IMG/VR virus record: IMGVR_UViG_3300035698_012970
Coordinates: 1 to 64,000 of that record
DNA from: a virus
Length of the DNA: 64,000 nucleotides
Strand: one strand, 5' to 3'
Shown in pieces: positions 2,902 to 64,000 of this stretch. The notes beneath the pieces were generated by a model, which ran no database searches, was not told the DNA's origin, and saw only the letters and a program-made list of their open reading frames with translations. Each line of letters starts with the position of its first letter. Position 1 is the first letter of the stretch. The position numbers were made by a program, and so were the translations under genes.

Positions 2902-3137
2902 TATTTAAAATTTCTTAATTTATTATACTCTTCTGGGGATAGGATTATTTCACTATTATGAATATTTCTACCTTTTAGAACCTTCCAGATGGTTTTTATT
3001 TTTTTAAACCAACTACAATCCTCGTATGAATTATAAAAAGTAACATAATACTCTTCACCCTCACCATCGAACCTGTCTACTGACATCGCCGAGCAATTAT
3101 CACCACATTTTACTAGCACTTCTGTTCTCTTCGTCAT
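2901..3137 (-). CDS. Hypothetical protein
   Basis: Start/stop overlap with neighbour. Confidence 0.7.
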   Translation of the reverse strand: MTKRTEVLVKCGDNCSAMSVDRFDGEGEEYYVTFYNSYEDCSWFKKIKTIWKVLKGRNIHNSEIILSPEEYNKLRNFK

Positions 3138-4616: not shown

Positions 4617-4940
4617 TTATTTAGTTTCGTTAAAGTGTTCACGTAATATATTTGCCAGCATATATTGAATCATATCAGCATCAACTGCAATAGGTAACCG
4701 TCGTACAATAACTCCATTCAGTCGATCTATTCGTAAATATAACATTCGATCCTTAACTGCAGGATCTACTAGCATTGCTTTTCTAAGTGTATCATTAAAA
4801 TGTTCTCTTGTTGGGGCAAGCAAATAAAATTTTTCTTTGTAGTTTGCGATTCCACTAATCAATAGAGTTGTGTTCCCAACTTTTCTTAATTCTCCTAAAT
4901 GACCCAAAAGCATTTGGGCTCTGTTAATTTCCCTTCCCAT
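4617..4940 (-). CDS. Hypothetical protein
   Basis: Tiles array. Confidence 0.65.
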   Translation of the reverse strand: MGREINRAQMLLGHLGELRKVGNTTLLISGIANYKEKFYLLAPTREHFNDTLRKAMLVDPAVKDRMLYLRIDRLNGVIVRRLPIAVDADMIQYMLANILREHFNETK

Positions 4941-4953
4941 ATTATATCTAAAT

Positions 4954-5655
4954 TTATCTAAACCAATTTATCATACCGTCCCAAAGTGCATCACCATGGC
5001 CGATTTTTCCATAATCTTTCCATTCTTCATCGTCCATTTTATCCATTTCAAGATCTTCCTTATGTATATCACTCATATCATCTAATAGTACAGGATTTTT
5101 TCTCTTTTGTAGTAATTCCCACCACTCATCTTTTTCGATTTTTTCATAATCAGGAATTATACTAATTTCACCAGGATATGAGCTAGGTTCAACCATTGCA
5201 GGTAAACCATAATAGTAAATCTTTCTTCCTTTCATCTCTTCCGGATTTAGAAAGTTATATGGGTGTTCTGTAAGTTCTATAATTAATGATTGAGCTTTAC
5301 TCATAGCATAAGCTATATTATGACTACCAAAGGAATATACCTCTTTACCATTAGCTTTTATTATACATCTACCTGTACTAGTTATCTGCCAATCATTCCA
5401 TTTATATTTAGAACGATTTCCTTGCTTGTAATCAATTTCCCAGCATGGTCTATTAATCAGTACATCAACATATGGTATCAATTCGCCAGAAAAATCAAGC
5501 CACCATGTTGTTGGTGTGCCGTTCATTTCACCAAGCTTATGTTTATAATTCTCAATGTTCCATACCTGACATAGTTTATTATCAACCATAATCTCAAATG
5601 CCTTTCTGCATTTATGGGTTTTCTGCATTTGTTCTATTGTGATACTATCTTTCAT
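4954..5655 (-). CDS. Hypothetical protein
   Basis: 233-aa ORF tiling array. Confidence 0.75.
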   Translation of the reverse strand: MKDSITIEQMQKTHKCRKAFEIMVDNKLCQVWNIENYKHKLGEMNGTPTTWWLDFSGELIPYVDVLINRPCWEIDYKQGNRSKYKWNDWQITSTGRCIIKANGKEVYSFGSHNIAYAMSKAQSLIIELTEHPYNFLNPEEMKGRKIYYYGLPAMVEPSSYPGEISIIPDYEKIEKDEWWELLQKRKNPVLLDDMSDIHKEDLEMDKMDDEEWKDYGKIGHGDALWDGMINWFR

Positions 5656-55961: not shown

Positions 55962-56552
55962 TTATATTTTTCTTTCTGCCCACCATTTTTTAATAGCTTC
56001 GCTTTTTCTTTTTTTAACTTCTTCAGAATCAGGTTTTCTTATTTCCCAGGCTTTTCTTAATTTTTCTTTAGTTTCCTCAGTTGATTTAGAACCTCTCATA
56101 AAAGTATTACCTTTTTTACTTTCCCCTATTTTTTTACATCCATCAGGAGATACTTTTGTACCCTTTTTATTCGTATTTCCCATTTGAGCTTTTGACATCC
56201 TTTCCCTGGTTTTTTCACTAAACTCGTAACCATTATCAACTAAATCTCTAGAGTTTTTTAGATCACATGTTTTCCGATATTCAGCTATTAACTCCATTTC
56301 CCGATCTTTTATTATTTCCTTATTCTCATATTCATATAAGGTCTCTATAATTTCCATTATTGGTTTAAGCTCTTTGTCTAACAAACTACAAATCCATGCT
56401 GCTTTTTGGTTCTTATGCCCATGTTTTCTTCCTGAATATATGTGTTGCTGGTATCTTTTTTTGGGTTGTACGGATCTACCAACATATTTTACATCTAAAC
56501 TAATAGGATCCTTAAGTACGTAAAAATGAATAGGTTTTTTCATAAAAGACAT
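55962..56552 (-). CDS. GIY-YIG-like endonuclease with NUMOD3 repeats
   Basis: FYVLKDP....VKYVGRS..PKKRY..H; SEKTRERMSKAQMGN repeats. Confidence 0.8.
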   Translation of the reverse strand: MSFMKKPIHFYVLKDPISLDVKYVGRSVQPKKRYQQHIYSGRKHGHKNQKAAWICSLLDKELKPIMEIIETLYEYENKEIIKDREMELIAEYRKTCDLKNSRDLVDNGYEFSEKTRERMSKAQMGNTNKKGTKVSPDGCKKIGESKKGNTFMRGSKSTEETKEKLRKAWEIRKPDSEEVKKRKSEAIKKWWAERKI

Positions 56553-56606
56553 ATTTTAATCTATATATCTTTAATTTATTCATTTTTTCGATGGAAACGT
56601 ACTTCA

Positions 56607-57080
56607 TTACAGCATCTCGTTATCAGAGAATTTAATCTGGGTAGTACCCATTCCTGATAGATTGTACATGGCACTATATTCACCTGATGATCCTGATGCT
56701 CCCTTTACTCCTGCAGATCCTGATGTACCATATGCTTGGTTACTCATATATGAGTTTTGGAAAGAAGATTTCCAGTGCCATTCATCATTTACTAATTGGT
56801 TGAATTCATTATGATCTAATTCAATAACTTCTTCAATCGCCATTTCAAGCATTTTAATCTTTAGGTCGTATTCTTTTAAATATGACTGTGGTTTATTAGC
56901 TTCGTAAAAATTTAGATCAAATTCTTTTCCATTAACTACATCATCCAATTTTTTTGCTAATAAATCAGCAGCTTTTATACGATAAGCTTTAATTGATTCT
57001 GAATACTCTTCAGCATGTTTAGCTCTGTTAGTTTTTAGGATTGCTAATAATTCCTCTTTTTTTACTTTAATCGTGTCCAT
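56607..57080 (-). CDS. Conserved hypothetical protein with short GxxG-rich tail
   Basis: VKKEELL..LK.NR.KH..EY; GTSGSAGVKGASGSSG. Confidence 0.75.
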   Translation of the reverse strand: MDTIKVKKEELLAILKTNRAKHAEEYSESIKAYRIKAADLLAKKLDDVVNGKEFDLNFYEANKPQSYLKEYDLKIKMLEMAIEEVIELDHNEFNQLVNDEWHWKSSFQNSYMSNQAYGTSGSAGVKGASGSSGEYSAMYNLSGMGTTQIKFSDNEML

Positions 57081-57090
57081 TTTATTATTT

Positions 57091-57330
57091 TTAATTTTTC
57101 TTTGGTTTAACGTGGGCGTGGATCATTCTTGGTGGTTGAGGTTCACAATTTTTACAATAATATACAATTTCAAAATGATCGTCATCTTTACCATTACAAC
57201 AAGTACATTTGATATCATATCGATAATATTTTCTACCTATATGTACTCTTGGTGTTTTACATATGTCGCAATGACCTACTTCTATTTCTCCACTCATTAT
57301 TTTACTACTTTCATTTGATCTGGATCCCAA
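57091..57330 (-). CDS. Small Cys-rich Zn-binding protein
   Basis: CDIC, CTCC, CKNC. Confidence 0.65.
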   Translation of the reverse strand: MGSRSNESSKIMSGEIEVGHCDICKTPRVHIGRKYYRYDIKCTCCNGKDDDHFEIVYYCKNCEPQPPRMIHAHVKPKKN

Positions 57331-57734
57331 CCTTCTGGTCTACAGAACATATTAGGTTTTCTATCCAATTTTTCTATGAAATCAACTTCCATTGGATATG
57401 TTTGTGCAAATTTACTCATACGGAACGCATCACCATAAGAATGTCTGTGTATCTGTCCAGCTTGACAAATATACGCTTTTGTTACCATATGTCTTGCGGT
57501 TTCTTCGTCAAGTGCTTCAACTATTACTTCACCTTTGCCTGAGAATTCAAGCTCAACTCTAAATAGGAATGTTTCAGGTTCTTTTGGTGGTTTAGGAGGT
57601 TCTGGGATTAATGCTAAAGCATCTTTCAACTCTTTATAGGTTTCTTTACTTCTAGCTTTACCAGTATCTACCTTATCAATAAACTTCTCAGCAGCTAATT
57701 TGAGTGCTACATAAGCTTCGTTATTATTACCCAT
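57297..57734 (-). CDS. Hypothetical protein
   Basis: KFIDKVDTGKARSKETY. Confidence 0.7.
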   Translation of the reverse strand: MGNNNEAYVALKLAAEKFIDKVDTGKARSKETYKELKDALALIPEPPKPPKEPETFLFRVELEFSGKGEVIVEALDEETARHMVTKAYICQAGQIHRHSYGDAFRMSKFAQTYPMEVDFIEKLDRKPNMFCRPEGWDPDQMKVVK

Positions 57735-57743
57735 TTTATTCTT

Positions 57744-58082
57744 TTAGTTTATGAATTCAGGATCTAAAATTAAGACCCCTATACATTCTTCTAAATTCTC
57801 TTCTATTGATTCTATTTCAATTTGACTATCATCAAAGTGTATATCAAATCCTGTTAAAAATTGCCATTTAGCAGCACCATTTGTTATTTGTATTCTTTCT
57901 CTTGGTATATTTAAGTCCTTTGCTACCCTATATAAATCTGCATTCCATTGTGGCCTACCTAATTCATCATCTACCCTACTAGTGGTTATCCAAATTTCAT
58001 GCCCTTCTTGAATTAGCTTTTTAGCAAGCCTTTGTGTTCGTTCTTCTGCTAATGTGCTATCGAAATCAAAACTTATTTTCAT
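57744..58082 (-). CDS. Small HAD-like phosphatase
   Basis: ISFDFDSTL, ITTSR, K, HFDD. Confidence 0.8.
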   Translation of the reverse strand: MKISFDFDSTLAEERTQRLAKKLIQEGHEIWITTSRVDDELGRPQWNADLYRVAKDLNIPRERIQITNGAAKWQFLTGFDIHFDDSQIEIESIEENLEECIGVLILDPEFIN

Positions 58083-58118
58083 TTTAATTTATAGTAATGG
58101 TAACGAAATGGGTTTCGC

Positions 58119-58454
58119 TTATTTATTAGGATATCCATCCTCTAATTTCTTCAGATCTCCAGCAAGTCTTTTTACCAGACTTTCATCCCCGTCATCACCT
58201 GAAAGGAACTAATCTATCCTTTGTGCAAATATAGCTGCTCGTTTAAGTTGATGTACAGCTTCTTGCATAACAATATTTATCTCTTTAGAATACTTAATAT
58301 GAAACTTCTCTTCAGGATATTTTTCGTAATACTCGTCACTAGACCATAATTCATCCTTATCTTTCTCCCTACCTTGTTTGGTAATTACTCTTTCTATTTG
58401 GTCCGCAATCTCATCTATCTTATATTGACCATAATCAAAATATCCTCCGCTCAT
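58119..58454 (-). pseudogene. Conserved hypothetical protein interrupted by an in-frame TAG
   Basis: ...AQRID*FLSGDDGDESLVKRLAGDLKKLEDGYPNK; stop at 58209-58211; the frame stays open to TAA at 58119. Confidence 0.65.
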
Positions 58455-58459
58455 AATAT

Positions 58460-58732
58460 TTAAGTTTTATAATTATAATAACGTTTCTTATAATCTTCAA
58501 AAGCATTATATACAGTATCACCAATTCCATAATAATTTGGAAATACATTTTTATCTATCCATTTTTCCAAATCATAATGGGGTTCTTCAAGCTCCTGAAG
58601 ATCTTGGATAACACTATTCTCAGCAATTGTATTAGCTATAACTATTTTACCACCATATCTCATGCTAATAATAGTTAATGGATAAATATCCTCAATCTTT
58701 TCAACCTTAATCTTTTTATTCATCAATTTCAC
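58460..58732 (-). CDS. Hypothetical protein
   Basis: IYPLTIISMRYGG. Confidence 0.7.
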   Translation of the reverse strand: MKLMNKKIKVEKIEDIYPLTIISMRYGGKIVIANTIAENSVIQDLQELEEPHYDLEKWIDKNVFPNYYGIGDTVYNAFEDYKKRYYNYKT

Positions 58733-59117
58733 TTTGTAATAAGTCTATAAAATCACTACCCGACCATTCTTCGCCTTCTGTATTACCATATAATAAAGAA
58801 TCCAATTCTTCTTTAAATCTAGTAGCATCAAATGTCACATACCCACAATCACCTATCCCAGGATCTGCCTGTACGTCATATTCTCTATCATCGACCTTTA
58901 AAATACAGCTACCAGTACATGATGAACACTCGTCTTTTTTATAACCTGATGTCTGAAGATATCCATCATTACTCAACCATTTATGCTTATAATATAAGCG
59001 ATGTAAATTATCTATTTTACATAGTAGTTTTTTAGCTGATTTAGCATATTGTAAAGAAGGCATTTTAGGATTGGGTATTTCACTAATATCCATATCAAAT
59101 AGGTCATCTACTTCCAT
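58716..59117 (-). CDS. Hypothetical protein
   Basis: Tiles array. Confidence 0.7.
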   Translation of the reverse strand: MEVDDLFDMDISEIPNPKMPSLQYAKSAKKLLCKIDNLHRLYYKHKWLSNDGYLQTSGYKKDECSSCTGSCILKVDDREYDVQADPGIGDCGYVTFDATRFKEELDSLLYGNTEGEEWSGSDFIDLLQSEIDE

Positions 59118-59177
59118 AGTTTATAGATTTATATTAAACTATAGATAGGAAGTTTCGCTATTGTATAAGGAAAGTTG

Positions 59178-59241
59178 TTTCGCTACTATAGTAGCGAAAA
59201 TTGATAGTTTATAGTGATTTTAGCTACTCTGGTAGCGAAAA
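59178..59241. repeat. Perfect 22-bp palindrome plus an imperfect second copy downstream of the tRNA operon
   Basis: TTTCGCTACTATAGTAGCGAAA (59178-59199) and TTTTAGCTACTCTGGTAGCGAAAA (59218-59241). Confidence 0.8.
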
Positions 59242-59244
59242 TTG

Positions 59245-59325
59245 AGGCAGCGGAGGGATTCGAACCCTCGAAGCTTTCGCAGTAGATTTGCAATCTACCC
59301 CCTTTGGCCACTCGAGAACACTGCC
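59245..59325 (-). tRNA. tRNA-Cys(GCA) with extended variable arm
   Basis: GGCAGTG/CGCTGCC acceptor, GTAGA-TTGCAAA-TCTAC, GGTTCGAATCC, U73; CCA not encoded. Confidence 0.9.
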
Positions 59326-59330
59326 ATTTT

Positions 59331-59407
59331 AATAGATAAAGAGGATCTCGACTTCTCTTTCCAATTCCTAAACAGAGTTTCACCCCTCGAAGTACACATT
59401 ATCTATT
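59331..59407 (-). ncRNA. tRNA-sized structured element (degenerate tRNA or unknown small RNA)
   Basis: AATAGATAA/TTATCTATT closing stem; internal AAAGAG-AAGTCGAGATC-CTCTTT T-arm-like hairpin; no canonical D or anticodon arm. Confidence 0.35.
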
Positions 59408-59412
59408 ATTTG

Positions 59413-59499
59413 AAGAGAGTAACGGATTCGAACCATCGAGCCCCGTGAAGGGCTACCTACTTTCCAGGCAGGTGCCTTAAGCCACTCGGCCAACTCTCT
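59413..59499 (-). tRNA. tRNA-Ser(GGA)
   Basis: AGAGAGT/ACTCTCT, CCTGC-CTGGAAA-GTAGG, long variable arm, GGTTCGAATCC. Confidence 0.92.
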
Positions 59500-59516
59500 A
59501 GTTATCAATAAGTTAG

Positions 59517-59603
59517 CGGAAGATGAGGGATTCGAACCCTCGGGACGCTTTCGCGCCCACTGGTTTAGCAAACCAGCCATTTAAGCCACTCATGCAATCT
59601 TCC
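59517..59603 (-). tRNA. tRNA-Ser(GCT)
   Basis: GGAAGAT/ATCTTCC, CTGGT-TTGCTAA-ACCAG, long variable arm, G73. Confidence 0.95.
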
Positions 59604-59608
59604 AGTTT

Positions 59609-59698
59609 TGGAGGAAGGAGGTGGTCTTGATCCACACCCGATCTAACGAGACCTGGTTTTCAAGACCAGTCGGAGCACCCGCCCCTGCTTCACCTTCC
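59609..59698 (-). tRNA. tRNA-Ser(TGA), non-canonical 8/4 tRNA-Sec-like fold
   Basis: GGAAGGTG/CTCCTTCC acceptor, D arm GGGGC-GGGT-GCTCC, CTGGT-CTTGAAA-ACCAG, 4-bp T stem GTGG-ATCAAGA-CCAC, encoded CCA. Confidence 0.85.
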
Positions 59699-59705
59699 AA
59701 ATTTG

Positions 59706-59787
59706 TATCTCAGGTGGGACTCGAACCCACACTCCTTTCGGAACTAGGCCCTCGACCTAGCGCGTCTACCAATTCCGCCACTGAGAT
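59706..59787 (-). tRNA. tRNA-Leu(GAG)
   Basis: ATCTCAG/CTGAGAT, GCGGAATTGGTAGACGC, CTAGG-TCGAGGG-CCTAG (C33), A73. Confidence 0.9.
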
Positions 59788-59809
59788 ATATTTAATTTTA
59801 ATGTTAAAA

Positions 59810-60481
59810 CTAATTATGTAAACTATGACAATTTGGACATAACATTTGTAAATTATTTAACTTATGATTTCGGTTATTACCATCAATATGATGTAATTCT
59901 ATACATAATTCTACCCTTTGCCATATACTTATTCCACATCTTTCACATTTATTTTCTTTTATACCTTCCTTTAGCAATCTTTTCTTTAGTTTATGTGTTT
60001 GATAGTTTGGGTGTTTTCCTTCTAGAATTTCTTTCAGTTGAATTTTTCTGAAACTTTTCCTTCTAGTCCCCTTTAGTCCAACATTAGGTTGATAAACACC
60101 AAGATTCTTAGCTCTTTTTCTAAGAGTTAAAAAAGAAACCCCTAATGATTCTGCTGCTTGACCCATACTTAAACTTTCTTTACATGATTTGATTATTTCA
60201 TCATCACTAACTTTCATATTATATTTTGCAACACACGTTTGACTACAAAATTTGGGATTTTTGTTTGTTTTACTACCAGTAAAATATTCATTACAATATT
60301 TACACTTTACAGTTAGTCCTTCTTTAGTTATTCCTCTTTCTTTAAAGGTGTTACTTACTTTTTCGTTAATTTCCTTTCTGTTCTTTTTAGTCGAAAAGCA
60401 TCTAGCACATTTTGTTGAACAAAATCTACCAGAGCCATATTCTCCCTCGTGCTCAATGCCACAATTTTCACAAATTCTCAT
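59810..60481 (-). CDS. HNH homing endonuclease inserted in the tRNA operon
   Basis: CENC..GRFCS..C, KFCSQTC, CERCG, ELHHIDGNNRNHKLNNLQMLCPNCHS. Confidence 0.9.
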   Translation of the reverse strand: MRICENCGIEHEGEYGSGRFCSTKCARCFSTKKNRKEINEKVSNTFKERGITKEGLTVKCKYCNEYFTGSKTNKNPKFCSQTCVAKYNMKVSDDEIIKSCKESLSMGQAAESLGVSFLTLRKRAKNLGVYQPNVGLKGTRRKSFRKIQLKEILEGKHPNYQTHKLKKRLLKEGIKENKCERCGISIWQRVELCIELHHIDGNNRNHKLNNLQMLCPNCHSLHN

Positions 60482-60589
60482 GATAATAGTTTTATTCTAT
60501 ATATCAATTCGAACTGTTGTTTTATGGTCCATTATTGATATACTTCAAAAATGGACCATAAATTCATCATAATTTCAAAGAACGCATCG

Positions 60590-60669
60590 TGATCCGGGAG
60601 GGACTCGAACCCTCAATCCGAAGAAATAGGGCTTAAACCTATCGTGTATGCCAATTTCACCACCGGACC
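60590..60669 (-). tRNA. tRNA-Leu(TAA)
   Basis: GGTCCGG/CCGGATC, ATAGG-TTTAAGC-CCTAT, GGTTCGAGTCC, A73. Confidence 0.92.
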
Positions 60670-60678
60670 TTTTAATCG

Positions 60679-60752
60679 TACTCCTGGAGGGACTCGAACC
60701 CTCAAAAACATGTGCCTAAAACATGCGCGTATACCAATTCCGCCACAGGAGC
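60679..60752 (-). tRNA. tRNA-Leu(TAG) lacking the long variable arm
   Basis: GCTCCTG/CAGGAGT, Leu-type D loop GCGGAATTGGTATACGC, CATGT-TTTAGGC-ACATG, variable loop only TTTTT. Confidence 0.9.
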
Positions 60753-60763
60753 TTTAATTTTTG

Positions 60764-60835
60764 GGTGTTATTTGGGAATTGAACCCAAATTACTTGGACC
60801 ACAACCAAGCGTCTTACCATTAGACCAATAACACC
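60764..60835 (-). tRNA. tRNA-His(GTG) with encoded G-1
   Basis: G-GTGTTAT/ATAACAC-C, CTTGG-TTGTGGT-CCAAG, GGTTCAATTCC. Confidence 0.92.
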
Positions 60836-60842
60836 ATGTAAT

Positions 60843-60877
60843 AAAAAAGGTCCTTCGGAATTACCGAAGGACCTTTT
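60843..60877 (-). terminator. Intrinsic terminator (attenuator) between the leader ORF and the first tRNA
   Basis: AAAAGGTCCTTCGG-TAATT-CCGAAGGACC-TTTTTT, ending 7 nt before tRNA-His. Confidence 0.85.
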
Positions 60878-60906
60878 AGTTATGTATTATTAACTTTAAC
60901 TTAAGC

Positions 60907-60993
60907 TCAGCAAATCCTTATATCGTTCCTACCATGTAAATGGGAGAGCGAACTTAGACAGCTTAATAGACTTATGTTAATTATGTTTTTCAT
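60907..60993 (-). CDS. Putative attenuator leader peptide of the tRNA operon, MKNIINISLLSCLSSLSHLHGRNDIRIC
   Basis: 28 codons plus TGA, A-rich start context; codons 8-20 are all Ser/Leu/Cys/His, matching the downstream tRNAs. Confidence 0.8.
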   Translation of the reverse strand: MKNIINISLLSCLSSLSHLHGRNDIRIC

Positions 60994-61007
60994 TGTTTCT
61001 TATAGAT

Positions 61008-61073
61008 TATATATCAATTTTGTTTCGTTTTTTATTTAATACAAATATAGATCTTATTTACGTAATAAAAAAA
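61008..61073 (-). promoter_or_regulatory. Stacked promoter motifs driving the leader and tRNA operon
   Basis: TTTTTTTATTACG-N-TATATTTG (61042-61073), GAAAC (61022-61026) and GATATATA (61008-61015). Confidence 0.6.
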
Positions 61074-61823
61074 TTAAAAGCCAAGTTTTTCCAAATCAAA
61101 ATAAATATCTAATCCTTCTCTATATTTTTCAGGTATTATTAATTTATTCTTCATTCTTTGGAAAAAAGCTTCATCCCATACATTTCTAAGTATTTTCATA
61201 GTTTGTAAAGGATTTTTTTCTATTTCACTATTAAAATAATCAGCATTTAATACTGTCATTGCTAGTTTCTTAGCTTCAATTCTACCTTTATACTTAAGTA
61301 CATTTTTGAATCCTTTTGGATATGGATTATACCAGCCCCCACCTAATATCTCGAATTCACTACAATTAAAATAACTCTCTAATTTTTTAGGAGCCCCTTT
61401 TACACTAGTAAGCTCATTACCTAAAACATTATAAGAACCTGTAACCTCTTTTGGCCCGCCACGAAGATCCTTTAGTTTGTTTGACTGACATCTAAAATCG
61501 CCAGTTTTCTTTGGTCCTCCTTTAAGGGTAGTTAATATATTATGATCACAATTAAATTCACGGGTAACTTCTTTAGGAGCACCTTCGAGTGTAGCTAAGA
61601 TATTATGAGAACAATTGAAGTTACCAGTTACTTTATTAAAAACAATTCCATTAAAATCACTTAATTCAGACTTAGAGCAATCAAAATCGCCTATAACGTC
61701 GATCATACCTTTTATGGTTTCCTTCCATTTACCAATAGTATACTCATTTAAGAAATCAACTTGCTCTTCGGTTATAGTACTTTCAGATTCATTTAGCTCG
61801 TTAAAATATTTTAGATGCTCCAT
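61074..61823 (-). CDS. LRR-like repeat protein with capsid-targeting-like N-terminus
   Basis: Repeats G.F.CS.N.L.TL.G.PK.V; N-terminus MEHLKYFNELNE. Confidence 0.8.
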   Translation of the reverse strand: MEHLKYFNELNESESTITEEQVDFLNEYTIGKWKETIKGMIDVIGDFDCSKSELSDFNGIVFNKVTGNFNCSHNILATLEGAPKEVTREFNCDHNILTTLKGGPKKTGDFRCQSNKLKDLRGGPKEVTGSYNVLGNELTSVKGAPKKLESYFNCSEFEILGGGWYNPYPKGFKNVLKYKGRIEAKKLAMTVLNADYFNSEIEKNPLQTMKILRNVWDEAFFQRMKNKLIIPEKYREGLDIYFDLEKLGF

Positions 61824-62333
61824 CTATTTTTTAAAATATTTATCGTACATCATTTCACCAATATATCTAATTCTCTTTCCTTGTAACCAAATTTCGTTTG
61901 CTTCCTCACACATTGCTTCGGTCATATCATTTCTAACCATATTAATGACATTATCATATGCATCAAATGCTTTCTCGCTTATTCCTTTCTCATCTGTAAT
62001 GATCCCAATAATCTCATTCTCTATTCTTTTTCTGAAAGCTTCTACATGAGTAACTGCTCTACCAAAAAAATCTTCATAAGACATATCAGATTCATGGATT
62101 GGTCTTTTAATAGGATTACCAATACCTCTATCTCTATGTATGGTTTTAATATATTGTGCTACGTGCTTGATACTTTCCAATGCAGATTTATCATCTACGT
62201 TAAATTGTGTCTTGATCTTAGCTATTAGGGCATCAAAGAGCTCATAAGTTTTATCATATACCTTTGTAGATGGTAAAATACTTAGTCCTACTCTTTCGTT
62301 CATGGATGAATCATATTCTTTTAAGTTTTCCAT
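61824..62333 (-). CDS. Hypothetical protein, putative virion-internal
   Basis: N-terminus MENLKEYDSSMNE. Confidence 0.7.
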   Translation of the reverse strand: MENLKEYDSSMNERVGLSILPSTKVYDKTYELFDALIAKIKTQFNVDDKSALESIKHVAQYIKTIHRDRGIGNPIKRPIHESDMSYEDFFGRAVTHVEAFRKRIENEIIGIITDEKGISEKAFDAYDNVINMVRNDMTEAMCEEANEIWLQGKRIRYIGEMMYDKYFKK

Positions 62334-62905
62334 TATTTAATCTCCAAAAAAGATTTGTTAGGAACTACTGCTGAAATAGATCCTTCATCTTCTCCTATAT
62401 TTTTATAATAATAACCACTTTTAGCATTACCCATTTTTAAATTCCTCATCATCATGATATTTGCTTTTTCGTCAGTATGCGGATTATTTGTGGTATTAGT
62501 CATTTGACCTATGATTCTAACCGGGAATACTATTGGCTTAGAATCAAAAGGGATTTGATTATTATCAGAATAAACGGCTCTATAATTTCTATCTGTCGTA
62601 TAGTAATCATCCTCGGGCACATCGCTTCCACAATTATATCCACTATCACAATAGTACCCTAATTCATCTTTTTTCCTCTTTAGTGCTTCTTTGCCAGCTA
62701 ATAATGTTTTCCCATATTCTCTAGTTCCATCCCATTCACCTTCGGCAGGAACTCCAATTCTTGCTTGTAATGCTTGTGTTGCAGCTAATTTAGTTCCGAT
62801 ATGAATACCTTTCTTACCACTTAGATCCTTATTTGCCGAGCCGTGATAAAATCCTCGACTTCCACTATAATTTTCATTTAAGAATTGTTCCCAATTATTG
62901 ATCAT
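62333..62905 (-). CDS. ADP-ribosyltransferase-like protein, putative virion-internal
   Basis: N-terminus MINNWEQFLNE; FYHGS...GIHIGT..AA; YYYKNIGEDEGSIS. Confidence 0.55.
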   Translation of the reverse strand: MINNWEQFLNENYSGSRGFYHGSANKDLSGKKGIHIGTKLAATQALQARIGVPAEGEWDGTREYGKTLLAGKEALKRKKDELGYYCDSGYNCGSDVPEDDYYTTDRNYRAVYSDNNQIPFDSKPIVFPVRIIGQMTNTTNNPHTDEKANIMMMRNLKMGNAKSGYYYKNIGEDEGSISAVVPNKSFLEIK

Positions 62906-63252
62906 CCTGTTGAATCTATAAATTTGATCTCCTTAGCGGTAATACCGTCTGGCTTTTCGTGGGATTTACTACGCCCACGGTGTGTATGTATAAAATATCC
63001 ATTCTTGTCAATACCCATATCAAACCCATTTGGGTAATTGCCTTTACTGATTTTCTTTTTAAGGTCTGGGTGTAGATTAAGTCCTGAGATTATTCCATTT
63101 TTGGCTCTTGAATATTCCTTACATAAAGAAACAGCAACCTCTTTAAGTTCTTTGGAAATTCCTTTTAGATATTTAATTGATTTTTCGATTGGTACGCTAT
63201 CGTCAATCTGCTTAAAATTTTCGTAAAGTTCTAAATGTTCCATATAATGCAA
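62902..63252 (-). CDS. Hypothetical protein, putative virion-internal
   Basis: N-terminus MEHLELYENF; GATATATA upstream at 63260. Confidence 0.7.
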   Translation of the reverse strand: MHYMEHLELYENFKQIDDSVPIEKSIKYLKGISKELKEVAVSLCKEYSRAKNGIISGLNLHPDLKKKISKGNYPNGFDMGIDKNGYFIHTHRGRSKSHEKPDGITAKEIKFIDSTG

Positions 63253-63258
63253 TTTGCA

Positions 63259-63492
63259 CTATATATCTTTTTCCTTTAGTACCTTTATTGCTTTTATATA
63301 GCTCTTGATTTTCTCATTCGCCTCATCAATCCATTTTTGGTATCGATCTTTAGCATACTTAGGGTCATCTTCTTGTAGTTTTTCAGTAAAAATTTTTGCT
63401 GTTCTAATTTCCTCTTTCAAGTAATCCATCAATAACTCAATCGAATGTCTCATAATTTTATTTTTTGATAATAGAAGAATTTGGTATATCAT
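63259..63492 (-). CDS. Hypothetical protein
   Basis: Tiles array. Confidence 0.6.
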   Translation of the reverse strand: MIYQILLLSKNKIMRHSIELLMDYLKEEIRTAKIFTEKLQEDDPKYAKDRYQKWIDEANEKIKSYIKAIKVLKEKDI

Positions 63493-63832
63493 CTAAGTTA
63501 ATATCCTTATTGACATATTCATCTATGAATGGCGGAATGTGACTTATAGTACCGATCTTTCTATTGTCGAACCAAATACTCTTAAGACTGTCAATCCTAC
63601 AGATCTTTTTTATTCTTTCAATCTCGCCAGGAATAGGTAATGGTTTCCATTCAAGTCTTATCCCCTTAAAACGATCTACTAATTCACGATTAATGAGATA
63701 TATGGTTTTACTGTTGTTAGTAGTTTCTTTATAAAAAACCTCATAATACCATAAAATATTGGATAGATGTTGATGGTCTATATCATTAATAGGCTTTCTT
63801 TCGCCCATACTAGTTTGCCAAATTAATGTCAT
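63458..63832 (-). CDS. Hypothetical protein
   Basis: IDHQHLSNILW. Confidence 0.7.
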   Translation of the reverse strand: MTLIWQTSMGERKPINDIDHQHLSNILWYYEVFYKETTNNSKTIYLINRELVDRFKGIRLEWKPLPIPGEIERIKKICRIDSLKSIWFDNRKIGTISHIPPFIDEYVNKDINLDDIPNSSIIKK

Positions 63833-63835
63833 AAT

Positions 63836-64000
63836 TTAATCCTCGATTATCCAACGATTAAGTTCTTGACCTGGCATCTTAGGACCAAAATCAGCTTCTC
63901 CCATATCAGTAACGGGAACACAAAATTCAACTCTATCCTTAGCTAAATCTGCATAATAATATGCATTGCCCATTCTAATAAATCTAAAATGTGCTAATGG
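63836..64000 (-). CDS. Hypothetical protein, C-terminal part (runs off window)
   Basis: Open frame ...EFCVPVTDMGEADFGPKMPGQELNRWIIED*. Confidence 0.6.
   Translation of the reverse strand, partial: PLAHFRFIRMGNAYYYADLAKDRVEFCVPVTDMGEADFGPKMPGQELNRWIIED

Follow-up and report, generated by a model that had tools for sequence, protein, structure and literature searches.

The stretch of viral DNA examined here (the window) spans bases 1–64000 of an 88,151-bp virus record of IMG/VR, IMGVR_UViG_3300035698_012970; positions above 64000 lie beyond the window and are given in the numbering of the full record. The subject is a short open reading frame (ORF), leader 1, followed on the minus strand by a terminator hairpin and a cluster of transfer RNA (tRNA) genes, operon 1; together these form unit 1. 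Nearly all genes around the locus lie on the minus strand. Re-reading of the sequence confirms the order of leader ORF, terminator and tRNA genes described in the original prediction, with the following components in the direction of transcription:

60907–60993, minus strand: leader ORF of 28 codons plus TGA, encoding MKNIINISLLSCLSSLSHLHGRNDIRIC (ATG at 60993, TGA at 60909–60907)
60934–60972, minus strand: putative sensor run, leader codons 8–20, 13 consecutive Ser/Leu/His/Cys codons
60843–60877, minus strand: terminator hairpin of 14 bp with T-run, between the leader and tRNA-His
60763–60835, minus strand: tRNA-His(GTG) with encoded G-1 (ARAGORN; Rfam, 64 bits; start at 60834 without G-1)
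60678–60752, minus strand: tRNA-Leu(TAG) (ARAGORN and Rfam)
60589–60669, minus strand: tRNA-Leu(TAA) (ARAGORN and Rfam)
59810–60481, minus strand: HNH homing-endonuclease ORF of 223 amino acids, inserted in the operon (PHROG HNH families, E 4e-24)
59705–59787, minus strand: tRNA-Leu(GAG) (ARAGORN and Rfam)
59613–59698, minus strand: atypical tRNA-Sec-shaped tRNA with anticodon UGA (Rfam tRNA-Sec model only)
59516–59603, minus strand: tRNA-Ser(GCT) (ARAGORN and Rfam)
59412–59499, minus strand: tRNA-Ser(GGA) (ARAGORN and Rfam)
59244–59325, minus strand: tRNA-Cys(GCA), the last gene of the operon (ARAGORN and Rfam)

Codons 8–20 of the leader read AGT CTA TTA AGC TGT CTA AGT TCG CTC TCC CAT TTA CAT and, as originally described, are restricted to the four amino acids that the operon serves. 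No Ser/Leu/His/Cys run longer than these 13 codons exists in any of the six frames of the 88,151-bp contig, where the runner-up comprises 10 codons and is of low complexity, and of the 79,819 stop-free 13-codon windows no other scores as high. Codons for these four amino acids make up 17.3% of the coding codons of the phage, giving a probability of 0.173^13, or ∼1e-10, for a 13-codon run at a fixed position; a chance origin of the run is excluded. Given 13 cognate codons, the probability of covering all eight tRNA classes is 0.089. The run includes the rare codons TCG, CTC, TCC and AGC, each used 2.3–3.9 times per 1000 codons in the phage. An in-frame TAA 9 nucleotides (nt) upstream leaves the ATG at 60993 as the sole possible start of the leader. 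The region preceding it is A-rich and lacks a Shine-Dalgarno sequence, and the AUG is unpaired in the minimum free energy (MFE) fold.

The terminator hairpin is present in every full-length fold of unit 1, and leader plus terminator fold with z = −4.75; a simple hairpin scanner lists the same 14-pair hairpin on the plus strand. The distance from the T-run to tRNA-His is 8 nt, in which no promoter fits, so that tRNA-His can be reached only by read-through.

Upstream of the leader the following elements are found:

61057–61073, minus strand: conserved upstream motif TTTTTTTATTACGTAAA of 17 nt with palindromic core TTACGTAA, three copies in the contig
61042–61049, minus strand: TATATTTG, a match to the −7 promoter box TAnnTTTG (read from the sequence)
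61006–61017, minus strand: TTGATATATAAT, an alternative sigma-70-like extended −10 element 12 nt upstream of the ATG (read from the sequence)

The pattern TTTTTAT[TA]ACGTA occurs exactly three times in 88 kb (61057–61073, 76562 and 86086), each time 80–105 nt upstream of one of three leader ATGs. The motif TTTTTTTATTACGTAAA is predicted to be either part of the promoter or a regulator site; its TTACGTAA-core form, unique to the three tRNA-operon promoters, may be the site for a dedicated regulator. TAnnTTTG, which we take to be the Bacteroidota −7 promoter consensus, was used to label TATATTTG, the likely promoter of the leader transcript. A TAnnTTTG box also precedes leader 3 of the contig and the leaders of two other phages, phi17:2 and LR756500.1, described below, and GATATATAAT or GTATATATAAG is common to all three leaders of the contig. 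Scanning IMG/VR with the promoter motif TTTTTTTATWACGTAWA returned AT-rich chance matches, none of which has a tRNA within 700 nt downstream.

Two further tRNA clusters of the same contig, both beyond the window, repeat the order of promoter motif, leader, terminator and tRNAs. Leader 2 (76455–76369, minus strand; MLEQGRNINNFRSDFIWDMNPCNLLHQT) contains the codon-matched stretch RNINNFRSDFIWDMN, and behind its terminator lie an intron-split Arg-UCU, Asp, Trp, Asn, Asn, Ile and Met. Leader 3 (86007–85897, minus strand; MNLNSLNTVNNSSRSVVVAYYKKYEEGGFWALHNIM) contains the stretch RSVVVAYYKKYEE and is followed by Glu, Lys(UUU), Val, Tyr and Arg(ACG). The correspondence extends to the choice of synonymous codons, in that both Arg codons of leader 2 are AGA and that of leader 3 is CGC, each fitting the Arg anticodon of its own operon. 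When the best 13-codon window of each leader is scored against each tRNA set, the counts for sets 1–3 are 13/5/1 for leader 1, 4/10/1 for leader 2 and 6/5/11 for leader 3, so that the diagonal of this 3 × 3 control holds 13, 10 and 11 matches and the off-diagonal cells 1–6.

Two tRNAs of the sister clusters are themselves unusual. The first gene of cluster 2 (76245–75970, minus strand) is split by a group I intron of ∼200 nt (Rfam RF00028, 81.5 bits), and by hand we read it as Arg(UCU) with the intron between positions 34 and 35. This reading rests on the anticodon stem ACGGC/GCCGT, on the CUU end of the 5′ exon (U preceding the 5′ splice site) and on the G that precedes the 3′ exon CTAA; the call Thr(CGT) made by ARAGORN was rejected in its favor. 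The tRNA at 85646–85551 (minus strand; Rfam, 54 bits) carries a 20-nt insertion in the anticodon loop and reads as Lys(UUU) when the insertion is removed. Two AAG codons in leader 3 suggest that this tRNA is used.

Both ARAGORN and Rfam report seven tRNAs in operon 1. The eighth, assigned as Ser-TGA in the original prediction, comes from the Rfam tRNA-Sec model alone and is missed by ARAGORN at default settings. In its alignment the D stem is 6 bp long with a loop of 4 nt, the variable arm is long and the T stem has 4 bp; the anticodon loop CUUGAAA gives the anticodon UGA, which reads serine codons. From these features it is probably a serine tRNA of unusual build, resembling allo-tRNAs. A similar element, the Sec-shaped tRNA of phi17:2, lies at ∼4880–4965 of the NC_021798.1 locus; free-energy folding yields no cloverleaf for either the eighth tRNA or its phi17:2 counterpart. 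The annotated phi17:2 gene gp078 (33 amino acids, NC_021798.1 locus 4884–4985) overlaps this tRNA-like element and is probably not a gene.

The same arrangement recurs in related phages. In phi17:2 an array of 22–24 tRNAs is cut into three units, each with a TTTG...TATGTTTG promoter, a short ORF and a terminator. The leader of the first, MKIQRLHLQELEQP... (QRLHLQELEQP), precedes Pro, Glu, Gln, His, Leu, Leu and Arg(ACG); that of the second, ...TKTGITVIDKTKGARAYLGDTVIG (TKTGITVIDKTKGARA), precedes Ala, Lys, Ile, Gly, Met, Asp, Thr, Val, Arg(UCU) and Met; and that of the third, MKTNYCTYNNSNWSFSY... (NYCTYNNSNWSFSY), precedes Tyr, Ser, Asn, Trp and Phe. The annotated gene gp077 (39 amino acids, NC_021798.1 locus 2943–3062) contains the leader of the second unit, its annotated TTG start lying inside the promoter. 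In LR756500.1 the leader MKAISVHIIHIWEHLLEEV... stands ahead of His, Glu, Val, Trp and Leu, the leader MKTLSTYPLGQAQTLGTPPITG (TLSTYPLGQAQTLGTPPITG) ahead of Ala, Leu, Pro, Tyr, Gln, Gly and Thr, and the leader MINLVNIIDNRRDDNNII... ahead of Asn, Asp, Arg(UCU) and Met.

Covariation was quantified in a panel of every hairpin plus T-run followed by a tRNA within 150 nt, collected from ∼120 IMG/VR loci together with the loci of the contig, phi17:2 and LR756500.1. The score of each unit was that of its best stop-free 12-codon window within 200 nt upstream, computed for the tRNA set of that unit and for those of every other unit. Over 64 non-redundant units the mean score is 3.34 for the own set and 1.58 for other sets, and for 19 leaders the true tRNA set ranks first of 64. 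None of 20,000 permutations reaches the observed mean, nor does any of 100,000 when the panel is collapsed to 21 families with dissimilar amino-acid sets; in a second panel, picked through the tRNA-Ser anticodon arm rather than through the boxA motif described below, 26 of 20,000 do. One member of this second panel (L421, 26% G+C) is an analogue of unit 1, its leader MKNLSLHSSLSYLLSYHMTIESDSLCVGIKLKF (MKNLSLHSSLSYLLSYH...) standing ahead of Tyr, Ser, Tyr, His, His, Ser, Leu, Leu and Leu and carrying Tyr codons in place of the Cys of unit 1; a 10-nt copy of its terminator 3′ arm lies inside the ORF end. The scan proposed with the original prediction, for covariation of leader codons with tRNA content in related phages, thus gives a positive answer in phi17:2, in LR756500.1 and in the panels.

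Between the leader ORF and the tRNA genes, the segments that could form alternative structures in unit 1 are:

60956–60963, minus strand: region 1, AGCUGUCU, inside the sensor run; in the MFE fold it pairs with region 2 in a weak helix of 7 pairs, 2 of them G-U
60909–60919, minus strand: region 2, AAGGAUUUGCU, from the last ORF codons to the stop, candidate antiterminator strand, pairing with 60874–60867
60864–60877, minus strand: region 3, terminator 5′ arm AAAAGGUCCUUCGG (sequence and folds)
60859–60863, minus strand: terminator loop UAAUU (read from the sequence)
60843–60858, minus strand: region 4, terminator 3′ arm CCGAAGGACCUUUU with T-run (arm 60858–60845; TTTTTT at 60848–60843 overlaps the arm end)

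The 8-bp antiterminator that had been proposed, in which AAGGAUUU (60919–60912) pairs with AGGUCCUU (60874–60867) with two G-U pairs, can indeed be drawn, and as a model for unit 1 it is plausible but unproven. The helix between regions 1 and 2 would be the classical 1:2 anti-antiterminator. Folding was repeated with the transcript cut just before the 3′ arm and a 29-nt ribosome mask. With the ribosome at codons 8–17 of unit 1 the 5′ arm is paired upstream with a probability of 0.54–0.61, falling to 0.30 at codon 20 and 0.28 at the stop. The corresponding values for unit 2 are 0.65–0.80 when stalled and 0.27 at the stop, a difference due to the ORF segment AACCUAUU, identical to the 3′ arm of the terminator. 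In unit 3 the free RNA has the antiterminator as its minimum-energy fold, and this gives way to the terminator once the ribosome is at the stop. From the stop codon to the hairpin the distance is 29, 25 and 19 nt in units 1, 2 and 3, respectively. Compared with dinucleotide shuffles, complementarity between ORF end and terminator 5′ arm reaches p = 0.029 for leader 2 and p = 0.002 for leader 3, and across the 64-unit panel its mean z is −2.4, with p ≤ 0.05 in 58% of the units and p ≤ 0.01 in 44%. The class as a whole carries antiterminators at the right place.

A second signal follows the terminator in many of these arrays. Units 2 and 3 each carry the 17-mer GTTCTTTGACATGTTGG in the space that separates the terminator from the first tRNA (76268–76252 and 85810–85794, minus strand). 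Its pattern is found in at least 118 IMG/VR stretches, often directly after the T-run, and among the matches listed a tRNA starts within 200 nt of the motif in 79 of 119 instances, usually at 5–15 nt. In bacterial genomes the pattern occurs mostly in Bacteroidota, in the 16S-23S spacer, as an identical 17-mer 28–100 nt upstream of the 23S ribosomal RNA (rRNA). The segment GTTCTTTGACA agrees at 10 of 11 positions with the boxA consensus GYTCTTTAANA, which is that of gammaproteobacterial rrn operons (PMC5725501). By sequence, then, the copies in units 2 and 3 match both the boxA consensus and the Bacteroidota rrn element, GUUCUUUGACAUG is a putative NusB/NusE site, and the signal that the arrays carry behind the attenuator is predicted to be the host's rrn antitermination signal. 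Because at many loci there is no space for a promoter between T-run and boxA, boxA RNA must there come from read-through transcripts. The hexamer TTGACA inside GTTCTTTGACATGTTGG was considered as a sigma-70 −35 box and rejected, since it lacks a −10 element at a suitable distance and belongs to what is the rrn spacer boxA. A search in each array for base pairing between the sequence following boxA and the array end gave noisy duplexes only. The 17-mer is the same as in rrn antitermination, but here it heads phage tRNA arrays behind a putative conditional terminator, and operon 1 differs again in having a variant copy only, placed after its third tRNA:

60572–60583, minus strand: boxA-like variant GTTCTTTGAAAT of GTTCTTTGACATGTTGG, after Leu(TAA)

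Directly after this variant, at 60524–60566 (minus strand) and ahead of the HNH gene, lies a 12-bp hairpin, UUUAUGGUCCAU ... AUGGACCAUAAA.

Taken together, these observations make it likely that unit 1 is a ribosome-mediated (leader-peptide) transcription attenuator, which senses how fast the ribosome decodes the codons that its own tRNAs serve. This reading, already proposed in the original prediction, gains support from the sister units, the related phages, the permutation tests and the gap that leaves no room for a promoter, and it is stronger for the class of units than for unit 1. In the proposed mechanism, transcription would start in the conserved promoter region 61073–61006, and a ribosome would translate the 28-codon leader as RNA polymerase moves toward the terminator. 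With adequate supply, the codons for His, Leu (three isoacceptors), Ser (three to four) and Cys would be decoded fast and the ribosome would arrive at the UGA, covering region 2 (60919–60909); the terminator at 60877–60843 would then form, and transcription would end 8 nt before tRNA-His. With short supply, scarcity of the charged tRNA for any one codon would stall the ribosome within codons 8–20, masking region 1 and freeing region 2 to pair with the terminator 5′ arm, so that polymerase would read through into the eight tRNA genes. As the tRNA products would relieve the stall, the result would be a closed loop of negative feedback that applies OR logic to eight isoacceptors. Leader translation, conditional termination, the sign of the response and its physiological trigger are what we infer from this arrangement. 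The switch may answer an anticodon-nuclease defence or the loss of host tRNAs.

Several findings weigh against this interpretation. The proposed duplex between AAGGAUUU and AGGUCCUU has an energy of −8.6 kcal/mol, compared with −7.7 ± 2.0 for dinucleotide shuffles (p = 0.30), and is therefore not above chance in unit 1. The ribosome-masked folds do sequester the 5′ arm more with a stalled ribosome than with one at the stop, but the terminator of unit 1 wins all full-length equilibrium folds, and the model accordingly rests on co-transcriptional kinetics. In the classical trp leader the terminator likewise forms in full-length equilibrium folds. Leader-peptide attenuation requires coupling of transcription and translation, which is not known to be established in Bacteroidota. 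The leader run samples the anticodons of all eight tRNAs, of which the atypical eighth scores 38.1 bits against a gathering score of 47, below the threshold. No close relative of the contig was found, so that conservation of leader 1 itself could not be shown. Units related by descent have both leader and tRNA set in common, so that the permutation p-values exaggerate how independent the units are; the test on collapsed families is passed nevertheless. Finally, some panel units (L161, for example) contain a promoter-like TAnnTTTG box between terminator and boxA, so that read-through is not necessarily needed by every unit.

Three alternative accounts were considered. The same parts could be coupled in another way or respond with another sign, through positive feedback in which efficient translation leads to read-through, through Rho or messenger RNA decay acting on an untranslated leader, or through ribosome-dependent processing. 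The chance-level antiterminator of unit 1 and the dominance of its terminator at equilibrium fit such schemes, as do the boxA elements, which show that Rho-type termination matters for these arrays; we nevertheless consider them improbable, since the sister units and the 64-unit panel carry significant copies of the 3′ arm inside the ORF end, placed where a terminating ribosome would mask them, which is the signature of classical attenuation, and since positive feedback provides no reason to sample every isoacceptor. The hairpin might instead be an ordinary leaky terminator or insulator of the upstream block, being the first terminator after the gene for a 249-amino-acid protein that ends at 61074, with the ORF a small protein or a chance frame and the tRNAs expressed by constitutive partial read-through. 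This account would leave unexplained the 13-codon run, the three-fold recurrence with a dedicated promoter motif and the way in which leader codons follow the tRNA sets in dozens of contigs, and is very unlikely.

It is just as hard to credit that the terminator is bypassed by a phage or host processive antiterminator, or by a promoter-bound regulator with the TTACGTAA motif as its candidate site, giving temporal control with no sensing by leader translation. The 17-nt motif is conserved and unique to the three tRNA-operon promoters, and boxA indicates that Nus-type antitermination is used in the arrays, but in units 2 and 3 boxA comes after the terminator and so cannot act on it, and the codon-matched leaders would be left without a reason. 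Such a factor may operate in addition to attenuation, as a second level of control.

As a ribosome-mediated attenuator, unit 1 would join a well-known mechanism with an output of a different kind. Leader attenuators of biosynthesis operons in Proteobacteria include trpL, hisL, leuL and pheL and the multivalent thrL and ilvL. The architecture is shared: a promoter, a short ORF with regulatory codons, a stop near the antiterminator strand, an intrinsic terminator and the regulated genes. So is the principle that the rate of decoding by charged tRNA is sensed, and the ilv and thr leaders also mix codons of several amino acids. However, classical leaders control enzymes, whereas here the output would consist of tRNA genes, whose products would act directly on the sensor. 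The sensor of unit 1 would cover up to eight isoacceptors of four amino acids with ∼1–3 codons each, unlike the long run of one codon in classical leaders. The classical leaders are those of Proteobacteria, and the present element is viral, belongs to a different host phylum, Bacteroidota, and has no sequence homology to them; the Rfam leader families give no match in the unit 1 locus (56000–64000). In unit 1 a short ORF follows a promoter, a cluster of cognate codons lies within it, and a terminator with no later promoter comes behind; the genes downstream are eight tRNAs and an HNH endonuclease in place of amino-acid biosynthesis or synthetase genes, and unit 1 is therefore kept outside the classical attenuator families.

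Other regulators of the translation apparatus share part of this logic. The leader attenuator pheM of the pheST operon of E. coli, encoding phenylalanyl-tRNA synthetase, also attenuates, through a leader peptide, a translation component that raises the supply of charged tRNA, but it controls the synthetase for one amino acid, whereas here the tRNAs themselves would be controlled, for several amino acids together. The T-box (RF00230) is likewise a transcription attenuator that answers the state of a specific tRNA through competition between terminator and antiterminator; it differs in binding uncharged tRNA through a specifier codon, free of ribosomes, and in targeting synthetase and amino-acid genes rather than tRNA genes. 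The T-box covariance model of Rfam has no match in 56000–64000 at E ≤ 1.

In literature searches no published account of leader-peptide attenuation of tRNA genes was found. The nearest published case is the trn operon of Anabaena sp. PCC 7120, a long tRNA array induced under translational stress and controlled at its promoter, where direct repeats are bound by the repressor TrcR (PMC8421152; PMC10272220). There, too, an accessory tRNA array stays silent until translation is impaired, but control is by a repressor and no codon-matched sensor is described; neither “attenuat” nor “leader peptide” occurs in PMC8421152 or PMC10272220.

If the attenuator reading holds, it would have consequences beyond this contig. 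It would constitute a direct closed-loop sensor of tRNA supply. Genes for tRNAs are usually regarded as controlled at promoters only. It would also explain the limited cost of large phage tRNA arrays and their division into sub-operons grouped by amino acid, and provide phages with a concrete route to answer defences that target tRNAs. By the match of codons to tRNAs, annotators could delimit tRNA operons and judge whether atypical phage tRNAs are functional. The model is testable, as phi17:2 is a cultured relative (on C. baltica) with three such units.

A broader generalization is possible, if on balance doubtful: in large Bacteroidota phages, and perhaps others, tRNA arrays may be self-regulating supply circuits in which each sub-operon has a multi-input stalling sensor that fires when any isoacceptor becomes limiting, through host tRNA shut-off, a mismatch in codon usage or anticodon-nuclease cleavage as possible triggers. 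Once past the gate, polymerase would take up the rrn antitermination complex of the host at boxA and go on to transcribe the array in full. Were this so, the leaders would be a key to the codons read by each phage tRNA, including odd ones such as the intron-split Arg-UCU, Lys-UUU with its insertion and the Sec-shaped Ser-UGA.

The contig has a G+C content of 32% and an estimated completeness of 38% (CheckV), indicating, at 88,151 bp, that the phage is large. The absence of Shine-Dalgarno sequences from the phage genes, promoters with TAnnTTTG boxes and a boxA as in Bacteroidota rRNA operons, taken together, point to a Bacteroidota host. A conserved gene of 708 amino acids (76970–79096; phrog_1735) has its best protein relatives in LR756500.1, an uncultured phage of 462 kb (61% identity), and in the Cellulophaga phages phi17:2 and phi4:1 (∼52%). 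For the 249-amino-acid protein adjoining the leader no relative was found in IMG/VR, and a distant DNA search of the phage collection with 59100–61900 gave matches confined to tRNA and HNH pieces. An Rfam search of the 64–88 kb part of the contig found no RNase P RNA at E ≤ 0.01. Salt-lake metagenomes of two studies contain DNA identical over the leader and tRNA stretch; natural variants of the leader were sought in these contigs and none was found, which leaves no natural variation on which selection could be tested.

Endonuclease ORFs interrupt the tRNA operons of the contig, with the HNH gene at 59810–60481 and nucleases of the DUF559/MTES_1575 type at 74765–75442 and 73662–74330, one of the latter two also bearing a C2H2 zinc finger. 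A methyltransferase-domain ORF (82641–83297) separates tRNA-Tyr from tRNA-Arg. A gene at 86681–87481 (minus strand), a short way upstream of tRNA operon 3, encodes a tyrosine-integrase-like protein of 266 amino acids (PHROG integrase families, E 1e-39), which stands out in a phage that otherwise has the appearance of a large lytic type.

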